Positions 32,575-37,532 of a stretch of DNA of 64,000 bases are shown here, piece by piece. How positions within the stretch are numbered: position 1 is the first letter of the stretch; each line of letters begins with the position of its first letter. This stretch comes from Dehalococcoidia bacterium (lineage in GTDB: Bacteria; Chloroflexota; Dehalococcoidia; DSTF01; JACRBR01), in the NCBI GenBank assembly GCA_041494685.1, contig JBGQBE010000011.1, positions 1 to 64,000 on the forward strand, in the 5' to 3' direction. The position numbers and the translations under genes are program-made. The notes under the pieces were generated by a model that saw only the letters and a list, made by a program, of their open reading frames with translations, was not told the DNA's origin and ran no database searches.

Positions 32575-32804
32575 GGCTCGTCGCCGTCCGCGCCGCCGCT
32601 GTCGTAGGCGAAGCCCGCCTGCTCCGCCACCATCTGGAGCAGCCGGCCGCTGGCGCCGCGCGGCTGGTAGACGCCGGTCTCCCACTCGCTGACGGTCTGC
32701 TGGCGCACGCCCAGCAGCTCCGCCAGCTGGTCCTGCGTCAGCGCCATGTGCCGCCGCAGCCCCCGCACGGAGCCCGAATCCCAGCTCGCCCGCCGCTTCG
32801 CCAT
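32571..32804 (-). CDS. XRE-family helix-turn-helix regulator
   Basis: LTQDQLAELLGVRQQTVSEWETG. Confidence 0.88.
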   Translation of the reverse strand: MAKRRASWDSGSVRGLRRHMALTQDQLAELLGVRQQTVSEWETGVYQPRGASGRLLQMVAEQAGFAYDSGGADGDEP

Positions 32805-32811
32805 GCCCGCG

Positions 32812-32840
32812 ACGCTACACGGAACCGTGTACGATGTCAA
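32812..32840 (-). promoter_or_regulatory. Promoter of the XRE-DUF2851 operon with a palindromic operator
   Basis: Minus strand TTGACA, N17, TAGCGT, 7 nt before the ATG; TACACGG-AA-CCGTGTA at 32816-32831. Confidence 0.7.
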
Positions 32841-32865
32841 GCAGCCCGTTGCGAAACTCAACGAC

Positions 32866-33354
32866 TCAGAACGAGATGGTGACCTCGCCGGCAACCCCGT
32901 TGTAGGTAAAGACCCAATCCGCCAGCACGTCGCGGCCGATCAGGGCGATGATCGGATGCACTCCCGTACTCAGCCGGACGAATTGGCCGGTCAAATTCAC
33001 TCCCACAACAGAAGTAAACTCCCTGTCGATACCATCGCCGGGAAATTCCAGACGCGCTGGATACCGATTGTGCTGGACGGGGCCTGCCGCCGTGCCCGAG
33101 GTGATCGAGCCGATCGGATTGAGCCCAAGAGTTTGGAGGATCGCTTCATGCACGCAGGTATTCGTGGCACCTGTGTCGATCAGTGCCATCCCCGCTTGTG
33201 GAGCGGGGAGTGTGCCACCGGCGCTAGCAATCTGCTCCGCTAGCGCGGTCGGCACATGGATGAGCACGTTGAAGATGGGACCGCATTCTTGGAGAAACGC
33301 CGGGTGCGCGTTCCCGTCGTGATCCTTGAACGACCTACTTCGAGACGGAGCCAA
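32866..33354 (-). CDS. Retropepsin-like aspartyl protease
   Basis: ALIDTGA catalytic motif and LIGRDVL; start uncertain. Confidence 0.8.
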   Translation of the reverse strand: MAPSRSRSFKDHDGNAHPAFLQECGPIFNVLIHVPTALAEQIASAGGTLPAPQAGMALIDTGATNTCVHEAILQTLGLNPIGSITSGTAAGPVQHNRYPARLEFPGDGIDREFTSVVGVNLTGQFVRLSTGVHPIIALIGRDVLADWVFTYNGVAGEVTISF

Positions 33355-33607
33355 GGCCGATCCCTACGAATAGAACCGGCGCCTGCAACGGGGGCTCTTG
33401 CGCGCGGATCTCCCTGATGAGGAACGGCTTATTACCGATCTTACGCAGCCCAGTTTCGTATGCCTCCGCCTCCGTCGTGAAGGTTCCGACGATTTCGCGG
33501 CCTGACACCAACGCGAACTGCCCTTCGTGGTGCTGGAGCAGCAGTTCACGCTGAGACTCGAAATACTCGATCTCCGCTTGAAGGATCGGATCGGCTGTCA
33601 CTGGCAA
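33335..33607 (-). CDS. DUF5678-like small protein
   Basis: YFESQRELLLQHHEGQFALVSGREIVG...EAYETG pattern; AGGAGG RBS. Confidence 0.7.
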   Translation of the reverse strand: MPVTADPILQAEIEYFESQRELLLQHHEGQFALVSGREIVGTFTTEAEAYETGLRKIGNKPFLIREIRAQEPPLQAPVLFVGIGLGSVSK

Positions 33608-33854
33608 CGGTTCCTCCTGGGGGGCACGTTAGACCCTCTCATTGAGAGGGTCGGTAACTACGTCCCAGACTTGACGGTTCATGCGGCCCACCGTGGGTGG
33701 GCACCTAGGGACGATGGGCGACTGGGATAGGAGATCGCGTTCTCCCTTCGTCATGTCGAACCCGCGCTACGCGCCCCTTACCACCAGGTTCAAGAATAGT
33801 GCTATCAGAAGCGGGCTGTCAATTGCTAATTTCGTCACAAAGTTGACAACCGGG

Positions 33855-35022
33855 CTAGGCTAGGCATCTTCGCAGACTCGCCGAGTCCCGCATCAGAGCG
33901 GCAACGTTCATCGTTAACACACTGAGGGCCACGTGGAGCCACACCTTCGGCAATCGCCGCGTTCGGATGCTGTTCAGCTTCCGGTAGCCCTTGAGCCTGC
34001 TGAACACCCGCTCTACCGAGACTCGCTTGTTATAGACCGCCTTCCATTCCTTCGAACCGTACGGGAACGGGCTGTGCTTCTCGAAGTACCGGGCACCCAC
34101 GTCGCTCAAGGGGCCATCCGCGAACACCGGCAGGATCGGGCAGGTGCCGAACTCCGGGCACACCGCGTCGTAGGGCAGCCGGTTGCAGCGGTAGTGCAGG
34201 CCAGTGGACGTGATGACCGGCTCGGCCTCGCATGGGCGCGCCTCGCGCGCTCGGGTACTCGCTGGCCTTCGCACGTCGATAACCGGCACGGCCCCCAGGT
34301 CGTCGCCCACGAAGGCGAACAGGCGCTTGGCGTCGTAGCCCTTGTCAGCGGTCACGTAGGACGGCTGGAACCAGTTGAACCGGCTCCGAGCGTCACCTGA
34401 GTACAGGGGCGAGCATGTTGCCGTCGTAGGTGTTCGCCGCTGTCACGTCGAACCAGATCGGCAGTTCCGAGTCCGCGTCCACGGCGAGGTGGATCTTGTA
34501 GCCATACCAGAAATAGGTGCTCTGCTGGCCCTTCTTCTTCGCGCCCGTGCCGGCGTCGGGGTCCGTGTCCTGGTGGAAGCCATTCGCCCACGCCTTCACG
34601 TCGGTAGCGTCTACAGCGACCGTGTGGCCGAAGCCCGGCAGTTTGTCCCGTAGTTGGCCGACAGAGGCCATGAGCACGTCCGAGACGGCCCCGCGGAAGC
34701 CCGAGAGCTTGCGCCGGAACCGGCAGATGGCGAACTTGCTCGGCACGTCGTCAGGCGAGTGGATGCCGCAGGCAGCCGCCAGCAGTGGGTTGGATTCGAG
34801 AGCGCGTACAAGGTCGGTATCGTGGACGATGCCGAGGTAGAACGAGGCCACCAGCGAGCGCCAGACAACCGGGATGGCGTAGCCGGGGCGGCCGGTATGC
34901 CGCGTGGCTTCAAGTTCCGCCAGCAAGGCGGCATCTGGAAGCGCCTCGAACAGGGCCGTCAAATCGGCGAATGGACTCGTTCCACGCCCTTGCCGAGGCG
35001 TGGTAGGATTGGATGCTGGCAC
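33855..35022 (-). pseudogene. IS4/IS5-superfamily (IS1182/IS5-like) DDE transposase split by a one-base frameshift near 34395-34401
   Basis: ORF1 (35022-34393) has TGRPGY, VAVDAT and GYKIHLAVD; the +1 frame continues with ADKGYD and YNKRVSVERVFSRLK (YREK-like). Confidence 0.85.
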
Positions 35023-35091
35023 GGGAGCTGAACCTCCTGTGTTCGGAAGGTGCCCGGCGGAGTTGCCGCTCTACCGGGTACCGCTAATGCT

Positions 35092-35168
35092 TGGAGAGCC
35101 GGACGGGATTCGAACCCGCGAATGCGCCCTTGCAGGGGACGTGCCTTCGGCCACTTGGCTACCGGCTC
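35092..35168 (-). tRNA. tRNA-Cys-like gene with an aberrant anticodon arm (possible pseudo-tRNA)
   Basis: GAGCCGG/CCGGCTC acceptor stem, discriminator T plus CCA, TAGCCAAGTGG..AAGGCA D-arm, GCGGG-TTCGAAT-CCCGT T-arm, anticodon arm CGTCC-CCTGCAA-GGGCG. Confidence 0.75.
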
Positions 35169-35219
35169 TCGGAATCTGGGCGGAGGGGAAACACAGCCAC
35201 GTGGCCCCTCCGCCTCTTT

Positions 35220-35299
35220 ATTCTAGCACGTCGGAGATAAGAGTCAATAGCCTGTCGCCGCTTTTACACATTGACTTATCGGCGCGAGCGCGATAAGAT
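35220..35299. promoter_or_regulatory. Divergent promoter pair inside element 1
   Basis: Minus: TTGACT (35247-35242), N16, TAGAAT (35225-35220). Plus: TTGACT (35271-35276), N17, TAAGAT (35294-35299). Confidence 0.7.
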
Positions 35300-35322
35300 C
35301 ACGCAGTAAAGGAGGTGCGCTT

Positions 35323-36078
35323 GTGAATACCCCCAACCAACCCAAGCGAAAAAAGGGCCGCAGCCCAAGCTATCCCGGCATCGATCTCCAGGAGGCGCTT
35401 GGGCGGGCGCGGACGCTGTACAGCATCGAGCGGCGCAACCCGATCCCGGTCATGACAGCGCTCGCGCACTGGAGTTACAAGTCAGCCAGCGGCCCCGGGG
35501 CTGTGGTTCTGGCCGCCTTGAAGAAATTCGGCCTGTTGGATGACGAAGGGGCTGGACCGGGACGGCACGTAAAGCTCACCCCGCTGGCACTCCAGATCAT
35601 TCAGGACGAACGCGAAGAGTCGCCAGAGCGCGATAACGCGATTCGCAAGGCGGCACTGCTACCGACGATCCACAGTCAACTGTGGTCTGAATACAAGGGC
35701 GAGCTTCCGTCGGATGCCAATCTCAGATTCAAGCTTCTCCGCGAACGCTCGTTCACAGAGTCGGGGGCCGCTGAGTTCATTCCCCAGTTCCGACGAACAA
35801 TCGCCTTTGCAAACCTCTCAGAAGGTGATAGCCTATCGGAGGACTCTGGAGACAAGACCAACGAAGAGAGGCGAGGTGGCATGGGAGGCGCAGGGACTTT
35901 GCTCAAGACGCCGCCTTCGGCCCACACGGTCCAGATTCCGATCTCGCCCGCTGAGTGGGCCACACTCCAGGCCCCGTTCCCGCTGACTGAGGCGAAGTGG
36001 CGGCAAATGCTCGCGGTGCTAGCGGCCATGAAGCCCGCTCTCGTCCAAGACGGCACAGACGACGAAGCCCCCGAATAG
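35323..36078 (+). CDS. Hypothetical protein, probable winged-helix fold
   Basis: AAGGAGG RBS; LAALKKFGLLD...VKLTPLA wHTH-like segment; hairpin after the stop. Confidence 0.7.
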   Translation: MNTPNQPKRKKGRSPSYPGIDLQEALGRARTLYSIERRNPIPVMTALAHWSYKSASGPGAVVLAALKKFGLLDDEGAGPGRHVKLTPLALQIIQDEREESPERDNAIRKAALLPTIHSQLWSEYKGELPSDANLRFKLLRERSFTESGAAEFIPQFRRTIAFANLSEGDSLSEDSGDKTNEERRGGMGGAGTLLKTPPSAHTVQIPISPAEWATLQAPFPLTEAKWRQMLAVLAAMKPALVQDGTDDEAPE

Positions 36079-36087
36079 GGGGCTTTC
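36064..36087. terminator. Hairpin between convergent genes
   Basis: AAGCCCCC-GAATA-GGGGGCTT. Confidence 0.55.
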
Positions 36088-36089
36088 GC

Positions 36090-36296
36090 TTAGTTCTTGT
36101 CGCGCAGGAACGGGATGCGTGAGTGGAGCCAGGCAGTCAACCCAATGGCCGCTATTAGCCAGATCAGCGGGAGATATGGCGGCACACCTGGGTATGCCTG
36201 TCCTACTACTCCGGCAGCGAAGCCTAAGATGAAGAATGGCGCGATGAAGACTGCCGCCAACAAGACTACGAAGCGGAGAAACATCATCGGAGTCAT
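36090..36296 (-). CDS. Small two-TM membrane protein
   Basis: 68-aa hydrophobic ORF; TGG-TAGAAT lies 7 nt upstream of the ATG. Confidence 0.6.
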   Translation of the reverse strand: MTPMMFLRFVVLLAAVFIAPFFILGFAAGVVGQAYPGVPPYLPLIWLIAAIGLTAWLHSRIPFLRDKN

Positions 36297-36482
36297 CGGC
36301 GCGATTCTACCACGACTGCGCCCCGGAGTTTCGCAACGGGCTGCTTGTAGCCCGTTGCGAAACTCGAGAGTAGCCCCCTCGACTCCATGAGTCAATGCGC
36401 CGATTAGATATCTTCCTCCGCATTTCATGCCCAGTCATTAGGTTTCAAGATTCGAACGGACGTACCGGCTTGAATCTTGGGA

Positions 36483-36629
36483 TTGAAAGGCTATAGGAAG
36501 CTCAACGCGATCCGCACCCGCCGGTTGCCGAAGGTGTGGCTCCACGTGGCGCTGAGTGTTCTGACAATGAACACGGCTGCCGTTGTCGGCAGCCGCGAAG
36601 GGTTTAGCGTTAGACGGTGCGTGGCTTGA
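36483..36629 (+). pseudogene. 3' remnant of a related transposase
   Basis: Translates LKGYRKLNAIRTRRLPKVWLHVALSVLTMNTAA..., nearly identical to the C-terminus of the element 1 transposase. Confidence 0.88.
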
Positions 36630-36632
36630 GCT

Positions 36633-36917
36633 TCAACAGGGAACGAGCACTGGGACACTCATGGTGATGCCCGGCTTCGGTGCGTGAGGGCCCTCCTCCT
36701 CAACGTGCGCACCAATCCAAGCAAGGATGGCTTCTCTCACGTTTGCTGTCAGCTCGTCCAGTGTTTCGCCCTGAGAAACGCAACCTTCGAGGTCAAGAAC
36801 TTCGCCCCAATAGCCACCTTCCTCGGCGTCATGCACGCGGACGGTGAAGACCATCTCTACAACGGGGCCGTTCGCGCCCGTCGTGGGAGCGCCGAAGTTC
36901 CTGTTAAACAAGCGCAT
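36633..36917 (-). CDS. hicB: HicB-family antitoxin
   Basis: EEGGYWGEVLDLEGCVSQGETLDELTANVREAI. Confidence 0.85.
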   Translation of the reverse strand: MRLFNRNFGAPTTGANGPVVEMVFTVRVHDAEEGGYWGEVLDLEGCVSQGETLDELTANVREAILAWIGAHVEEEGPHAPKPGITMSVPVLVPC

Positions 36918-37122
36918 GGAACTCCTCCTCCGTCAATCCAGCCAGCTTAATTTGGTGGCGCAGCAAGCCGACCTTCAGCACGCCGGATGGCAACGAGATA
37001 AGCTTGCCATTCGGCATCTTCACGACTCGGTGGCTCCCTTTGCCCTTGCGTTCTGTGCCACCAGCGTTGACGAAGGCACGCACGGCTTCGTCTTGGCGAA
37101 CATCACGAAACGTGGGTGCCAG
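36904..37122 (-). CDS. hicA: HicA-family toxin (not in the ORF track; probable CTG start)
   Basis: Hand translation (M)APTFRDVRQDEAVRAFVNAGGTERKGKGSHRVVKMPNGKLISLPSGVLKVGLLRHQIKLAGLTEEEFHALV with GSH motif; overlaps the hicB start. Confidence 0.82.
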   Translation of the reverse strand: MAPTFRDVRQDEAVRAFVNAGGTERKGKGSHRVVKMPNGKLISLPSGVLKVGLLRHQIKLAGLTEEEFHALV

Positions 37123-37505
37123 CGGAGCACCTCACAGAGATAATCGGCGGGGATTGGTCAGATGGCAATGGGCTCCTTCCCTGAGGCCATCCAGGGTGTG
37201 TAAGCGATTGTACCACTTGACAACACAATGTATAGGGGATCTTCTGTAAGAAGCGGTCACAGCCTGAACCTGTGGGTTGACAACCCTGACGTTCACGTCA
37301 TTGTTTGGTGGAGTTTCGCAACGGGCTACAAGCAACGAGGCTGGGAGTTGGAAGGCGGAAGTGGGATGTCGGGGTGGCAGGGGACTGGAAATCGGGGATT
37401 GGACAACAATTCGGTGCCGTCTGCGCCTTATGTGTATCCGTCCGCGAGCGCAAGCCCCGACTCACGCGCCACCAGCATCCAACTTCCAATTTCCCGTCGC
37501 CACCC

Positions 37506-37532
37506 CTAGCACTCTCTCGTGTTGAGTGCTAA
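37506..37532 (+). promoter_or_regulatory. CIRCE element (HrcA operator)
   Basis: CTAGCACTC-N9-GAGTGCTAA upstream of groES. Confidence 0.93.

Follow-up and report, generated by a model that had tools for sequence, protein, structure and literature searches.

Transposases are usually kept at low levels by weak promoters, fold-back leaders or antisense RNA. In the stretch of 64,000 nt from a Dehalococcoidia bacterium that was analysed here (the window), a transposase gene lies directly behind a gene for a tRNA-like RNA, on the same strand and within the same mobile element, and the locus raises the question of what such an RNA does in front of a transposase. From the sequences compared below, we consider that this 77-nt RNA makes up the 5' portion of the transcript of the transposase in a family of cargo-carrying DDE transposons related to IS1182 and IS5. 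The function that we favor, tentatively and at slightly less than an even chance, is that the tRNA-processing enzymes of the host may excise the RNA from this transcript and so set the 5' end of the transposase mRNA.

The Element and Its Transposase

The tRNA-like gene and the transposase sit within a 3.5-kb element (element 1) whose ends are perfect 22-bp inverted repeats, the left one at 32838-32859 (+) and the right one, 100% complementary to it over 22 nt, at 36326-36347 (-). The core 17-mer of the left repeat, AGCCCGTTGCGAAACTC (32843-32859), has 4 perfect copies in the window against 0.20 expected, the expectation being for matches within 3 mismatches, and outside the window the 3.29-Mb assembly holds no perfect copy. 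The same inverted-repeat motif bounds homologous elements in L007, L014, L015, L016 and L017 (L numbers designate the loci of relatives), and a metagenome contig of run X4 joins 32842 to 36349, so that it lacks exactly element 1. A joint from 32771 to 37506 in run X3 was discounted, as it has only 28 letters on one side. The tRNA-like gene lies 1.16 kb from the repeat on one side and 2.2 kb on the other, which agrees with the preliminary description of this DNA, where the RNA had been placed inside the repeats and not taken for an attachment site. An 87-nt inverted repeat (33906-33992 / 36486-36572) was rejected as terminal, since it pairs the transposase 3' end with a truncated second copy. 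A local alignment of the region after the transposase stop codon with the regions beyond the tRNA-like gene, which would reveal terminal repeats nearer to the transposase, gave only chance matches of 11-13 nt. No integrase-like Pfam domain was found in element 1 or its relatives.

A degenerate element 2 adjoins element 1 (36349-37327, +). It has inverted 17-mers of its own (36349-36365 and 37311-37327). Inside it, a second transposase is represented by a 3' fragment (about 36480-36629, +), and there is also a HicB-like ORF (36633-36917, -). The flanks of 4-5 nt in the window are direct repeats only when the two elements are taken together, those of either element alone being inverted; in relatives, the direct flanking repeats are TCAA(T) in L015 and CTAG in L007, L042 and L043.

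The transposase is split into two frames by one extra base. Its N-terminal part (209 aa, 34393-35022, -) starts with GTG at 35022, carries DUF772 and DDE_Tnp_1 and stops at the TGA 34395-34393, and its C-terminal part (166 aa, 33855-34355, -) holds the second D and the E region and matches DDE_Tnp_1 / DDE_Tnp_1_6 in Pfam. The full-length relatives have about 390 aa. This frame break, which is absent from the preliminary description, is identical in contigs of three runs. With the NCBIfam IS1182 model (NF033551), the intact relative L016 scores 157.8 bits against a cut-off of 270, and the window pieces score 83.5 and 46.3; with the IS5 models (NF033581 and others), L016 scores 88.2 against a cut-off of 140, and a window piece 65.9. 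By its sequence the transposase can be called IS1182/IS5-like, though it stays under the curated NCBIfam cut-offs.

The element also carries passengers. A 162-aa ORF (32866-33354, -) is weakly aspartyl-protease-like in Pfam, with 24.6 bits for Asp_protease_2 (cut-off 24.3) and 25.1 for gag-asp_proteas, below its cut-off of 28.2. A 90-aa ORF (33335-33607, -) has no family and is preceded by a promoter-like site (33822-33793). On the other strand, ORF251 (35323-36078, +), for which the promoter scan gave a divergent promoter-like site (35271-35299, +), had no match in Pfam, NCBIfam or PADLOC; it is a weak relative of the ORF preceding the tRNA-like gene in L016 (BLASTP E 3e-4, 26% identity over 206 aa).

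A tRNA-like Gene of Incoherent Identity

The tRNA-like gene (77 nt, 35092-35168, -) has a Cys-like body and a U73-CCA tail. It is the sole tRNA called by ARAGORN in the window, where it was typed as Ala(tgc), and with 52.5 bits against RF00005 (gathering score 29, E 2.1e-8) it belongs to the Rfam tRNA family, this being the only gathering-level Rfam match in the window. Among the Rfam tRNA matches of its own genome it ranks 39/44, and the host tRNA-Cys (C1:50883-50956) reaches 69.3 bits. All 7 pairs of the acceptor stem and all 5 of both the T and the anticodon stem can form, and the L-shape determinants are present, namely GG in the D loop and UUCGAAU in the T loop. The CCA is encoded, as it is in all the host tRNAs compared.

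The anticodon loop is CCUGCAA, with UGC at its center, C33 and A37. Position 33 of the 7-nt loop of a decoder is expected to be U and position 37 a purine, and the window RNA departs from this by its C33, although A37 is present. If it is read as a tRNA-Ala, its acceptor has G3:C70 in place of the G3:U70 by which tRNA-Ala is identified. If it is read as a tRNA-Cys, its D arm and discriminator (U73) are indeed Cys-like when set beside those of the host tRNA-Cys, and the sequence shows the GCA register to require a C:C mismatch and a 2-nt position 26. Judged by sequence, the RNA is thus without a coherent tRNA identity, since UGC lacks G3:U70 and the Cys-like body has GCA out of register. The nearest host tRNA matches it at 58 of 77 positions, and tRNA-Cys at 54 of 77. 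The preliminary description had proposed scoring and typing this RNA, and the outcome, Ala(tgc) and 52.5 bits, bears out the 77-nt cloverleaf ending in U-CCA, its Cys-like D arm and discriminator, the odd loop on a well-paired stem and the mismatch in the GCA register that it had drawn.

The Leader of the Transposase

On the minus strand, a promoter is followed by hairpin 1, the tRNA-like gene with its CCA, hairpin 2, a sequestered Shine-Dalgarno sequence and the GTG-started transposase. The promoter is of the sigma-70 type (TTGACT-16-TAGAAT with a TG extension, 35220-35247, -; 10/12 consensus matches), and transcription of the transposase, together with hairpin 1 and the tRNA-like gene, is predicted to start from it. 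Over 4.7 kb the scan gave 6 promoter-like sites where 0.9 were expected; L094 and L095 have homologous promoters. Between the tRNA-like gene and the transposase (minus strand, 35023-35091), neither a terminator-like nor a promoter-like site was found.

Hairpin 1 (35179-35214, -) is a GC stem of 10 pairs with -27 kcal/mol and a z score of -3.55, none of 200 shuffles being equally stable. It ends 10 nt upstream of the 5' end of the tRNA-like gene, and an equivalent hairpin is found in 19 of 20 loci of the close clade, at most about 12 nt upstream, behind either an ORF or a promoter; it is absent from L094. Hairpin 2 (35049-35082, -; apical GCGGCAAC) has -25.8 kcal/mol and a z score of -2.4, with 4/200 shuffles equally stable. 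Of the 12 pairs predicted in the leader, 6 show compensatory changes among 17 sequences, and these 6 all belong to hairpin 2. Downstream, GGAGGT lies at 35037-35032 and the GTG start codon at 35022-35020; in the predicted fold (35024-35037, -), GGAGG (35037-35033) pairs with GCUCC (35028-35024), and each of these pairs is kept in 15-17 of 17 relatives. Counted from the CCA, the start codon ends after 72 nt in the window and after 69-74 nt in the 16 relatives listed. The promoter with its 16-bp spacer, both hairpins, GGAGGT and GTG had all been pointed out in the preliminary description, and all were found within 1-2 nt of where it had put them.

Recurrence of the RNA among Relatives

Relatives were recovered by an alignment-based query of genome contigs, whereas a single-protein query found none; the plasmid collection gave only one remote IS1182 match. 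Upstream sequence was available for 20 distinct relatives with at least about 40% identity, and 19 of them have a co-oriented tRNA-like gene 65-128 nt before the transposase start: all 6 of L005-L010, all 3 of L015, L016 and L018, and all 10 of L094-L099, L101, L102, L104 and L105, so that L012 is the one close relative lacking it. With ARAGORN at its default settings, a tRNA was called within 500 nt upstream on the transposase strand at 16 of 86 loci and on the opposite strand at none, and control segments gave 0/86 on either strand; the metagenome set (n = 76 loci) gave 16 on the transposase strand against 1 on the opposite one. At 80% thresholds the calls (40, 42, 32 and 28 of 86 in the test and control sets) were discarded as noise, and a strict scan for acceptor plus T arm (minihelix) was used instead. 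In all, about 35 loci of the family, from two phyla, bear the RNA. It is present at roughly one locus in five of the distant Actinomycetota branch, and it is missing there from L042 and L043, two identical copies of 4367 bp with exactly defined ends.

The relatives' elements are 3.3-4.4 kb long and carry several passenger genes. Those of Chloroflexota occupy one conserved chromosomal site beside a DUF2851 gene, in both orientations and also in tandem.

Conservation and Variation of the RNA

L094 and the window are 72.5% identical over 2225 nt, yet their RNAs share 76 of 77 bases, the CCUGCAA loop included, and because of this difference the RNA appears to be under purifying selection. As 19 of 20 relatives carry the RNA, L094 keeps it nearly unchanged and Actinomycetota have copies too, the sequences argue that it is a conserved element-borne gene and not a decayed host tRNA. 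The preliminary description had anticipated that homologous transposases might carry upstream cloverleaves with variable anticodon arms, and they do; it had also named two findings that would speak against it, homologues lacking the RNA or a decayed copy of the host tRNA-Cys, and the homologues have the RNA, with the odd loop intact in L094.

Arm statistics were taken from the ARAGORN brackets; a MAFFT alignment of 13 tRNA-likes misaligned the copies with degenerate D arms. The acceptor is paired 7/7 and the T stem 5/5 in 15 of the 16 correctly called cloverleaves. L008 has 6/7 and 4/5 in the ARAGORN register, and L007, L008 and L014 reach 7/7 and 5/5 in the minihelix scans. The D arm is degenerate in L007, L008, L014, L101, L102 and L105. 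From these comparisons, the top half of the molecule (acceptor and T arms) is taken to be preserved in every copy, while the D and anticodon arms are variable or degenerate. The window, L094, L095, L016, L018, L053, L054 and L040 have loops with C33, with 8 nt or with a pyrimidine at 37, and C33 loops recur independently as CCUGCAA (window, L094), CCGUUAA (L095) and CCAGCAA (second copy of L008). Other loops are specific to lineages: UCG-type in L014, L007, L101, L102, L105 and L008, AUC at 4 loci and UGCG at 2. Canonical loops of 7 nt, with U33 and A37, are found in many copies (e.g. L006, L009, L010, L063, L066, L083 and L104). The stems show compensatory changes between the sister copies L009/L016 and L014/L007, as read from the sequences. 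Actinomycetota copies have a tRNA-Leu-like class II body with A73 and the anticodons AUC, UUC, UCC, CCA or a 4-base UGCG. The CCA is encoded in Chloroflexota copies and absent from Actinomycetota ones, according to the host convention.

Some elements are mosaics. L015 matches L017 up to the CCA and then, within about 5 nt past it, L016, so that the leaders of L015 and L016 are near-identical and their RNAs differ. A second breakpoint lies inside the transposase and leaves the RNA with the transposase leader. The linkage between RNA and transposase is therefore not absolute, as breakpoints occur both right after the CCA and inside the transposase. T-box-like pairing between anticodon and leader was rejected, because L015 and L016 share a leader and differ in anticodon.

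Possible Functions of the RNA

If the RNA is processed as we tentatively propose, its 5' end would be made by RNase P and the CCA end by RNase E, RNase Z or exonucleases. This excision would separate the transposase mRNA from the upstream transcript, which in most relatives holds passenger genes, would fix the mRNA 5' end about 10 nt before hairpin 2, and would leave the upstream RNA with hairpin 1 at its end; the excised RNA would probably be a stable, non-decoding tRNA mimic. Some observations count against this proposal. Processing needs the fold alone, and the window and L094 nevertheless share all loop bases as well: by our estimate, a divergence of 27% should have changed about 5 of some 20 unconstrained positions, and 1 change is observed, which suggests that the RNA is recognized by its sequence in some way that goes beyond RNase P. 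In scaffold families, positions 34-36 vary next to a constant 32, 33 and 37, a pattern that looks like that of a working anticodon loop and not of a free one. The lack of hairpin 1 in L094 also counts against processing, as does the Actinomycetota branch, where the RNA seems optional and behaves like cargo.

The excised RNA may, rather, act in trans, as a non-decoding tRNA mimic that binds a protein through an anticodon arm serving as its specificity part; the transposase and tRNA-modifying enzymes are candidate partners, as are tRNA-targeting toxins or defence enzymes, toward which it would act as decoy or antidote. We hold this to be somewhat unlikely. It would account for the conservation of the entire RNA in L094 despite the background divergence, for loops conserved by lineage and for the repeated, independent origin of C33 loops, and it fits the defence or toxin-antitoxin type of cargo (PDC-M34A, PDC-S33 (RelA_SpoT), HEC-09 (NYN), ParE-like and HicB-like). 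However, the type of RNA does not follow the cargo: L097 and L099 have the same RNA and different upstream ORFs, and a Gly-like type is common to L009, L016 and L097, whose neighbors differ. No partner protein was found family-wide, the upstream ORFs being PDC-M34A/DUF5343 (the literature searched yielded nothing on DUF5343), without family, or RHH-like (L053, L063), and a fixed place beside the transposase leader would be unnecessary for trans action. An extended form, fairly unlikely in our view, would make these RNAs a transposon-borne family of non-decoding mimics whose anticodon arm is a swappable specificity module, acting in trans after release; they could, for instance, act against tRNA-targeting toxins and defence enzymes, as decoys or antidotes, or serve as a licensing cofactor. 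The C33, 8-nt and rare-codon loops would then be adaptations excluding the mimic from the ribosome, and a licensing cofactor would tie transposase output to the tRNA-processing or charging state of the host. A working tRNA, be it a supplied decoder or a deliberate mis-decoding or suppressor tRNA, is unlikely. The retained L-shape determinants and encoded CCA, the host convention for CCA followed in both phyla and the many U33/A37 loops would suit it; so would the Leu-like class II bodies with varied anticodons, as bacterial LeuRS ignores the anticodon, and Leu- or Cys-like bodies with foreign anticodons are allo-tRNA-like. Against it stand the C33 and incoherent identity of the window copy, its low Rfam rank and score beside tRNA-Cys, the six close copies without a normal D arm and the commonness of 8-nt and pyrimidine-37 loops. 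Codon supply is further disfavored because the neighboring transposase gene shows no enrichment of the cognate codon (6/21 positive, permutation p 0.98), in a test confounded by GC differences between clades.

Two further explanations were considered. The RNA could be a captured host tRNA or former insertion target without present function, or the module could target tRNA 3' ends; the breakpoint just past the CCA in L015, the resemblance to the host tRNA-Cys and the optional presence in Actinomycetota would be expected from this. It is nonetheless quite improbable, for the RNA lies 1.16 kb inside the inverted repeats, no inverted repeat pairs the post-CCA sequence with the region beyond the transposase stop, the ends of L042 and L043 do not adjoin a tRNA, and the element has no integrase-like domain. 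Neither do the RNAs look like functionless passengers, with no host tRNA closer than 58/77, 76/77 bases retained against a 72.5% background, compensatory stem changes between sister copies and one breakpoint that leaves the RNA with the transposase leader. Very improbable, finally, is a guide RNA, proposed by analogy with bridge RNAs and omega RNAs, whose variable anticodon loop would pair with target or donor DNA and aim the transposase. A structured RNA with a variable loop is indeed encoded beside the transposase, and the Chloroflexota elements do share one site, but at this same site, with the same inverted-repeat core, the loops are UGC (window), GCU (L015, L017), CCUC (L016) and UUUCGAAG (L014). 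Targeting, one of the roles offered in the preliminary description, is disfavored for that reason; moreover, near-identical leaders go with different RNAs in L015 and L016, and no loop complementarity to repeat ends or flanks was seen by eye.

Significance

If the processing proposed here occurs, it would add a new layer to transposase control, in which the mRNA is made by the host tRNA-maturation enzymes, and some of the numerous irregular tRNA genes of soil and sediment metagenomes would thereby acquire a function. The literature searched, seen in part, contains no description of this arrangement, in which a tRNA-like gene lies directly before a transposase and the anticodon arm differs among relatives. 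The approximately 35 loci in two phyla, with conserved hairpins and variants with degenerate D arms or altered loops, constitute a natural mutational series that suits testing what bacterial tRNA-like processing or mimic elements need. The regulation of these elements also bears on the building of defence islands, because they carry candidate defence genes site-specifically and stack in tandem.

Comparison with Known Systems

Transcripts that combine tRNAs and mRNAs are known from the tRNA punctuation of mitochondrial polycistrons and from the thrU-tyrU-glyT-thrT-tufB operon of E. coli. As in these, a tRNA-shaped unit and a coding region share one transcript here, and excision by RNase P and 3' enzymes is presumed. 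The window unit differs in not being a genuine decoder (C33, incoherent identity), and in lying inside a DNA transposon, directly before the transposase and with dedicated flanking hairpins, its processing being predicted. In the MALAT1 mascRNA and MEN-beta systems, the excision of a cloverleaf matures the neighboring RNA, and a stabilizing structure lies just upstream of the RNase P cut. The window RNA likewise combines a tRNA-like cloverleaf with a structure left just upstream of a predicted RNase P cut; however, the mascRNA system belongs to eukaryotic nuclear long non-coding RNAs, the window RNA is upstream and not downstream of its functional partner, and its score with RF01684 (mascRNA-menRNA) is 18.8 bits, below the gathering score of 42.5. 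The IS110 bridge RNA and the IS200/605 omega RNA are structured guide RNAs encoded beside transposases of other classes. They share with the present RNA a conserved non-coding structure next to the transposase gene within the element, and they differ in that here the same target is used with different loops by another class of transposase.

Non-canonical tRNA genes with unexpected anticodons, some of them inactive in translation, have been described in soil and sediment bacteria, and irregular tRNAs and allo-tRNAs were found in the neighborhood of genes related to transposons and of toxin-antitoxin loci (Mukai et al. 2017, PMC5389517; review PMC7609411; both seen in part). The window RNA resembles them by its unexpected anticodon, its sediment host and its proximity to a transposon gene, as far as the parts of these papers that were seen describe them. 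Allo-tRNAs are defined, in the part of PMC5389517 seen, by a 12-bp acceptor branch split 8/4 or 9/3, whereas the window RNA has a 7-bp acceptor and a 5-bp T stem. A fixed position before a transposase, an element bounded by inverted repeats and family-wide conservation are not described in the parts of PMC5389517 and PMC7609411 seen.

For IS5 and IS1182 elements, the portion of the literature searched contains no description of a tRNA-like gene before the transposase. Like them, the present elements have a DUF772 plus DDE_Tnp_1 transposase and variable cargo, with terminal inverted repeats that share ..GCGAAAC across branches and CTAG-type flanks (L042, L043). They depart from them by a transposase under the curated cut-offs, by a length of 3.3-4.4 kb with several passengers and, in the Chloroflexota branch, by insertions that share a single chromosomal site and occur there in both orientations and as tandem arrays.

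A tRNA-like gene inside the transposon

The only tRNA that ARAGORN calls in the 64-kb window is an Ala(tgc) on the minus strand (35092-35168). This gene is also the sole gathering-level Rfam match in the window, with 52.5 bits for the tRNA model (gathering score 29). The cloverleaf of 77 nt has an acceptor stem of 7 bp, a D stem of 3 bp with an A13/A22 mismatch, an anticodon stem of 5 bp that carries the loop CCUGCAA, a variable loop of 5 nt, a T stem of 5 bp with the loop UUCGAAU, and a discriminator U followed by an encoded CCA. Its body is Cys-like; a decayed copy of the host tRNA-Cys was nevertheless rejected because no host tRNA is close (58/77 matches for the best one, 54/77 for tRNA-Cys). 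In the same assembly (G000), the only tRNA-Tyr found (contig C40:4464-4540, 77 nt, 64.2 bits) has a short variable arm and C1:G72, a type expected of archaea and eukaryotes and not of bacteria, and its D arm is similar to that of the tRNA-like gene. This contig also carries a truncated tRNA-Arg-like fragment (C40:11942-12017, minus strand), whose 5' half matches the Arg(CCU) gene at C1:872 almost throughout.

The preliminary description had placed the RNA within the element, and this holds, because a perfect 22-nt terminal inverted pair (32838-32859 and 36326-36347) encloses it and because a contig of sequencing run X4 joins 32842 to 36349, exactly element 1 being missing from it (one contig, depth 3.25, shorter side 49 letters). 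Element 1 is 3.5 kb long; besides the transposase and the tRNA-like gene, it has the divergent ORF251 and two small ORFs. It is abutted by element 2, a 0.98-kb remnant in which a HicB-like ORF accompanies the 3' part of a second transposase gene. The assembly contains one more isolated piece of the transposase 3' end, the third, at C5:65935-66063 (80% identity). The 17-mer core of the repeat, AGCCCGTTGCGAAACTC, is present in four perfect copies of alternating orientation (at 32843, 36326, 36349 and 37311), against 0.20 copies expected in the window within 3 mismatches, and no further perfect copy was found elsewhere in the 3.29-Mb assembly. An 87-nt "inverted repeat" was rejected as the element end, since its two arms are the 3' end of the transposase gene and a truncated second copy of it.

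The same core is found at the ends of the relatives' elements, and in a distant Actinomycetota branch (about 30% identity) the elements end in a related repeat, CTAGGAGGGnTnGCGAAAC. Two 100% identical copies of 4367 bp on one contig (L042 and L043) have the Actinomycetota repeats and CTAG at both ends; the family thus moves as multigene units. The cargo is varied and mostly of the defence-candidate or toxin-antitoxin type. In L014-L017, as in the window, the element adjoins a DUF2851 gene; both orientations of the element occur, and some elements are in tandem. One conserved chromosomal site beside this gene is occupied in at least five genomes (window 32838-37327; L014, L015, L016, L017, L094), with PDC-M34A/DUF5343, PDC-S33, HEC-09, dCTP-deaminase-like, ParE-like and DUF3800 cargo. 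There, 6-7 nt separate the abutting ends of tandem elements, and about 13 nt outward from the repeat is a palindrome, TACACGGAACCGTGTA, that is conserved. The pattern resembles a hot spot used site-specifically by a DDE transposon.

The leader of the transposase gene

In the window, the leader features are all on the minus strand. A promoter (TTGACT-16-TAGAAT with a TG extension, 35247-35220) lies upstream of the tRNA-like gene, which is flanked by the GC hairpin 1 on its 5' side (35179-35214, -27 kcal/mol, z -3.55) and by hairpin 2 on its 3' side (35049-35082, z -2.4). Downstream of hairpin 2, the predicted fold pairs GGAGG with GCUCC, and the GTG start of the transposase follows. A site scan found no internal promoter or terminator between the tRNA-like gene and the transposase. 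Measured from CCA, the start codon ends after 72 nt in the window and after 69-74 nt in 16 relatives. Of the 12 leader pairs predicted, 6 show compensatory changes across 17 sequences, all of them in hairpin 2, and the Shine-Dalgarno pairing is kept.

Hairpin 1 was found in 19 of 20 close loci. Upstream of it, the element has an ORF in most close loci and the promoter in the window and L095; in L094, the promoter lies 7 nt 5' of the RNA and hairpin 1 is absent. Hairpin 1 can also exist without the RNA, since at L014:6941-7800 its homologue (GGCGGAGCG..CCACGTGG..CGCTCCGCC) comes after a second PDC-M34A-like ORF, with no tRNA-like gene or transposase behind it. In the window and in the relatives of the leader alignment A5, an apical GGCAAC/GGCAAG motif is common to hairpin 2 and to a third hairpin (34975-34996) within transposase codons 7-14, and the inner terminal repeat reads GTTGCG on the opposite strand. 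Such sequences might be recognised and bound by the transposase or by a regulator.

The transposase and its frame break

The transposase combines DUF772 and DDE_Tnp_1 domains. The NCBIfam families nearest to its full-length relatives are IS1182, with 157.8 bits against a cut-off of 270, and IS5, with 88.2 bits against 140 (scores of the intact relative L016), and because these scores are below the cut-offs, the transposases are IS1182/IS5-related and not members. Intact relatives encode about 390 aa; the window's gene is split over two frames (209 and 166 aa) by one extra base at AGG-TGA-C (34395-34393, minus strand), a site that the intact relatives do not have. The break recurs in contigs of three runs, and a +1 shift at the TGA stop gives an ungapped alignment with the family consensus. 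Either a simple insertion of 1 nt or a shifty stop of the prfB type accounts for the break. At the 3' end of the gene (33826-34134), 42 differences and 5 gaps are clustered in contig 1 of run X1, a pattern that points to a variant present alongside or to recombination between copies.

Recurrence of the tRNA-like gene among relatives

Few genomes carry the family (5 of 60 related ones and 3 of 400 sampled from the phylum, with identity measured against the window's ORF in these two surveys and against P0001 in two others), and most loci come from metagenome bins. The expectation that homologous transposases are preceded by cloverleaves with variable anticodon arms was borne out: a co-oriented tRNA-like gene precedes 19 of the 20 distinct relatives with at least about 40% identity and upstream sequence present, related loci not being independent in these counts. 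It was found in all six related-genome loci (L005-L010; four by ARAGORN, two by eye and a strict acceptor-plus-T-arm scan), in all three on genome contigs (L015, L016, L018; ARAGORN) and in all ten on metagenome contigs (L094-L099, L101, L102, L104, L105; eight by ARAGORN, two by the scan). Several calls come from our own scan and reading. No tRNA-like gene was found in L012, nor in L013, L103, L106 and L107 (33-39% identity). With ARAGORN defaults, the 500 nt upstream contain a tRNA on the transposase strand in 16 of 86 loci, and none on the opposite strand or in control segments (0/86 each); in the metagenome set (n=76), it is 16 loci versus 1.

Acceptor 7/7 and T stem 5/5 pairing is seen in 15 of the 16 cloverleaves correctly called by ARAGORN and, in strict scans, in L008, L007 and L014. 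The anticodon arms are diverse (UGC, GCU, GGA, CCC, CGG, GUU, CAC and a 4-base CCUC), and UCG-type loops occur on copies with degenerate D arms. Actinomycetota copies (L083, L091, L121, L128, L130, L138, L168, L172, L173) have a tRNA-Leu-like class II body with A73 and the anticodon AUC, UUC, UCC or CCA, or an 8-nt loop with UGCG; several of these anticodons match codons ending in A or U, which are expected to be rare in high-GC hosts.

Tandem pairs of tRNA-like copies occur in L091, L063 and L144. In L040, L054, L083 and L173, a palindromic motif, TGCAGCCTATATCGGCTRCCC, directly follows the gene; elsewhere, it has one weak match in the same orientation within 6 mismatches, in L075, the sole such case among transposase loci without a detected tRNA-like gene. 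A second tRNA-like gene of L008 (2994-3064, plus strand), oriented against the transposase and about 0.7 kb upstream of it, has U73-CCA and CCAGCAA, a C33 loop like the window's.

Selection on the RNA and its possible function

L094 and the window are 72.5% identical over 2225 nt, but 76/77 positions are identical in the RNA, including the whole anticodon loop; by our own arithmetic, 27% divergence would leave 77 sites with no more than one change with a probability of about 1e-9. Compensatory stem changes can be read between sister copies (L009 versus L016, L014 versus L007). Among copies with the same scaffold, positions 34-36 vary, but 32, 33 and 37 do not.

We tentatively read this anatomy, at somewhat less than even confidence, as that of a tRNA-like unit that would be excised from the transposase transcript, because position and strand are conserved, the "top half" is intact, the lower arms are free or degenerate, hairpins flank the unit and nothing between it and the transposase resembles a promoter or terminator. 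The loop bases shared with L094 and the constancy of positions 32, 33 and 37 argue against a purely structural role, and so keep two other readings alive: a tRNA mimic acting in trans, which we consider unlikely, and a decoding or mis-decoding tRNA, which is less probable still; a codon test did not support codon supply by the gene. A guide-RNA function is disfavoured, since a single target site and a single repeat serve elements whose loops differ.

That the RNA is a hitch-hiker or of insertion-target origin fits a mosaic breakpoint directly after CCA; another breakpoint, however, keeps the RNA with the leader. The position of the RNA inside the inverted repeats, the X4 contig, the near-identity with L094, the compensatory changes and the lack of a close host tRNA also speak against this origin, which we regard as less probable than a decoding or mis-decoding tRNA.

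Relation to known irregular tRNAs

The literature searched, which includes few subscription journals, yielded no description of a DDE transposase gene preceded by a tRNA-like gene. Passages of two papers (Mukai et al. 2017, PMC5389517; 2020 review, PMC7609411) report irregular tRNAs with a possible link to transposable elements or toxin-antitoxin loci. The allo-tRNAs presented there differ from the RNA considered here in having acceptor/T branches of 8/4 or 9/3, and an arrangement ahead of a transposase is not described in those passages.
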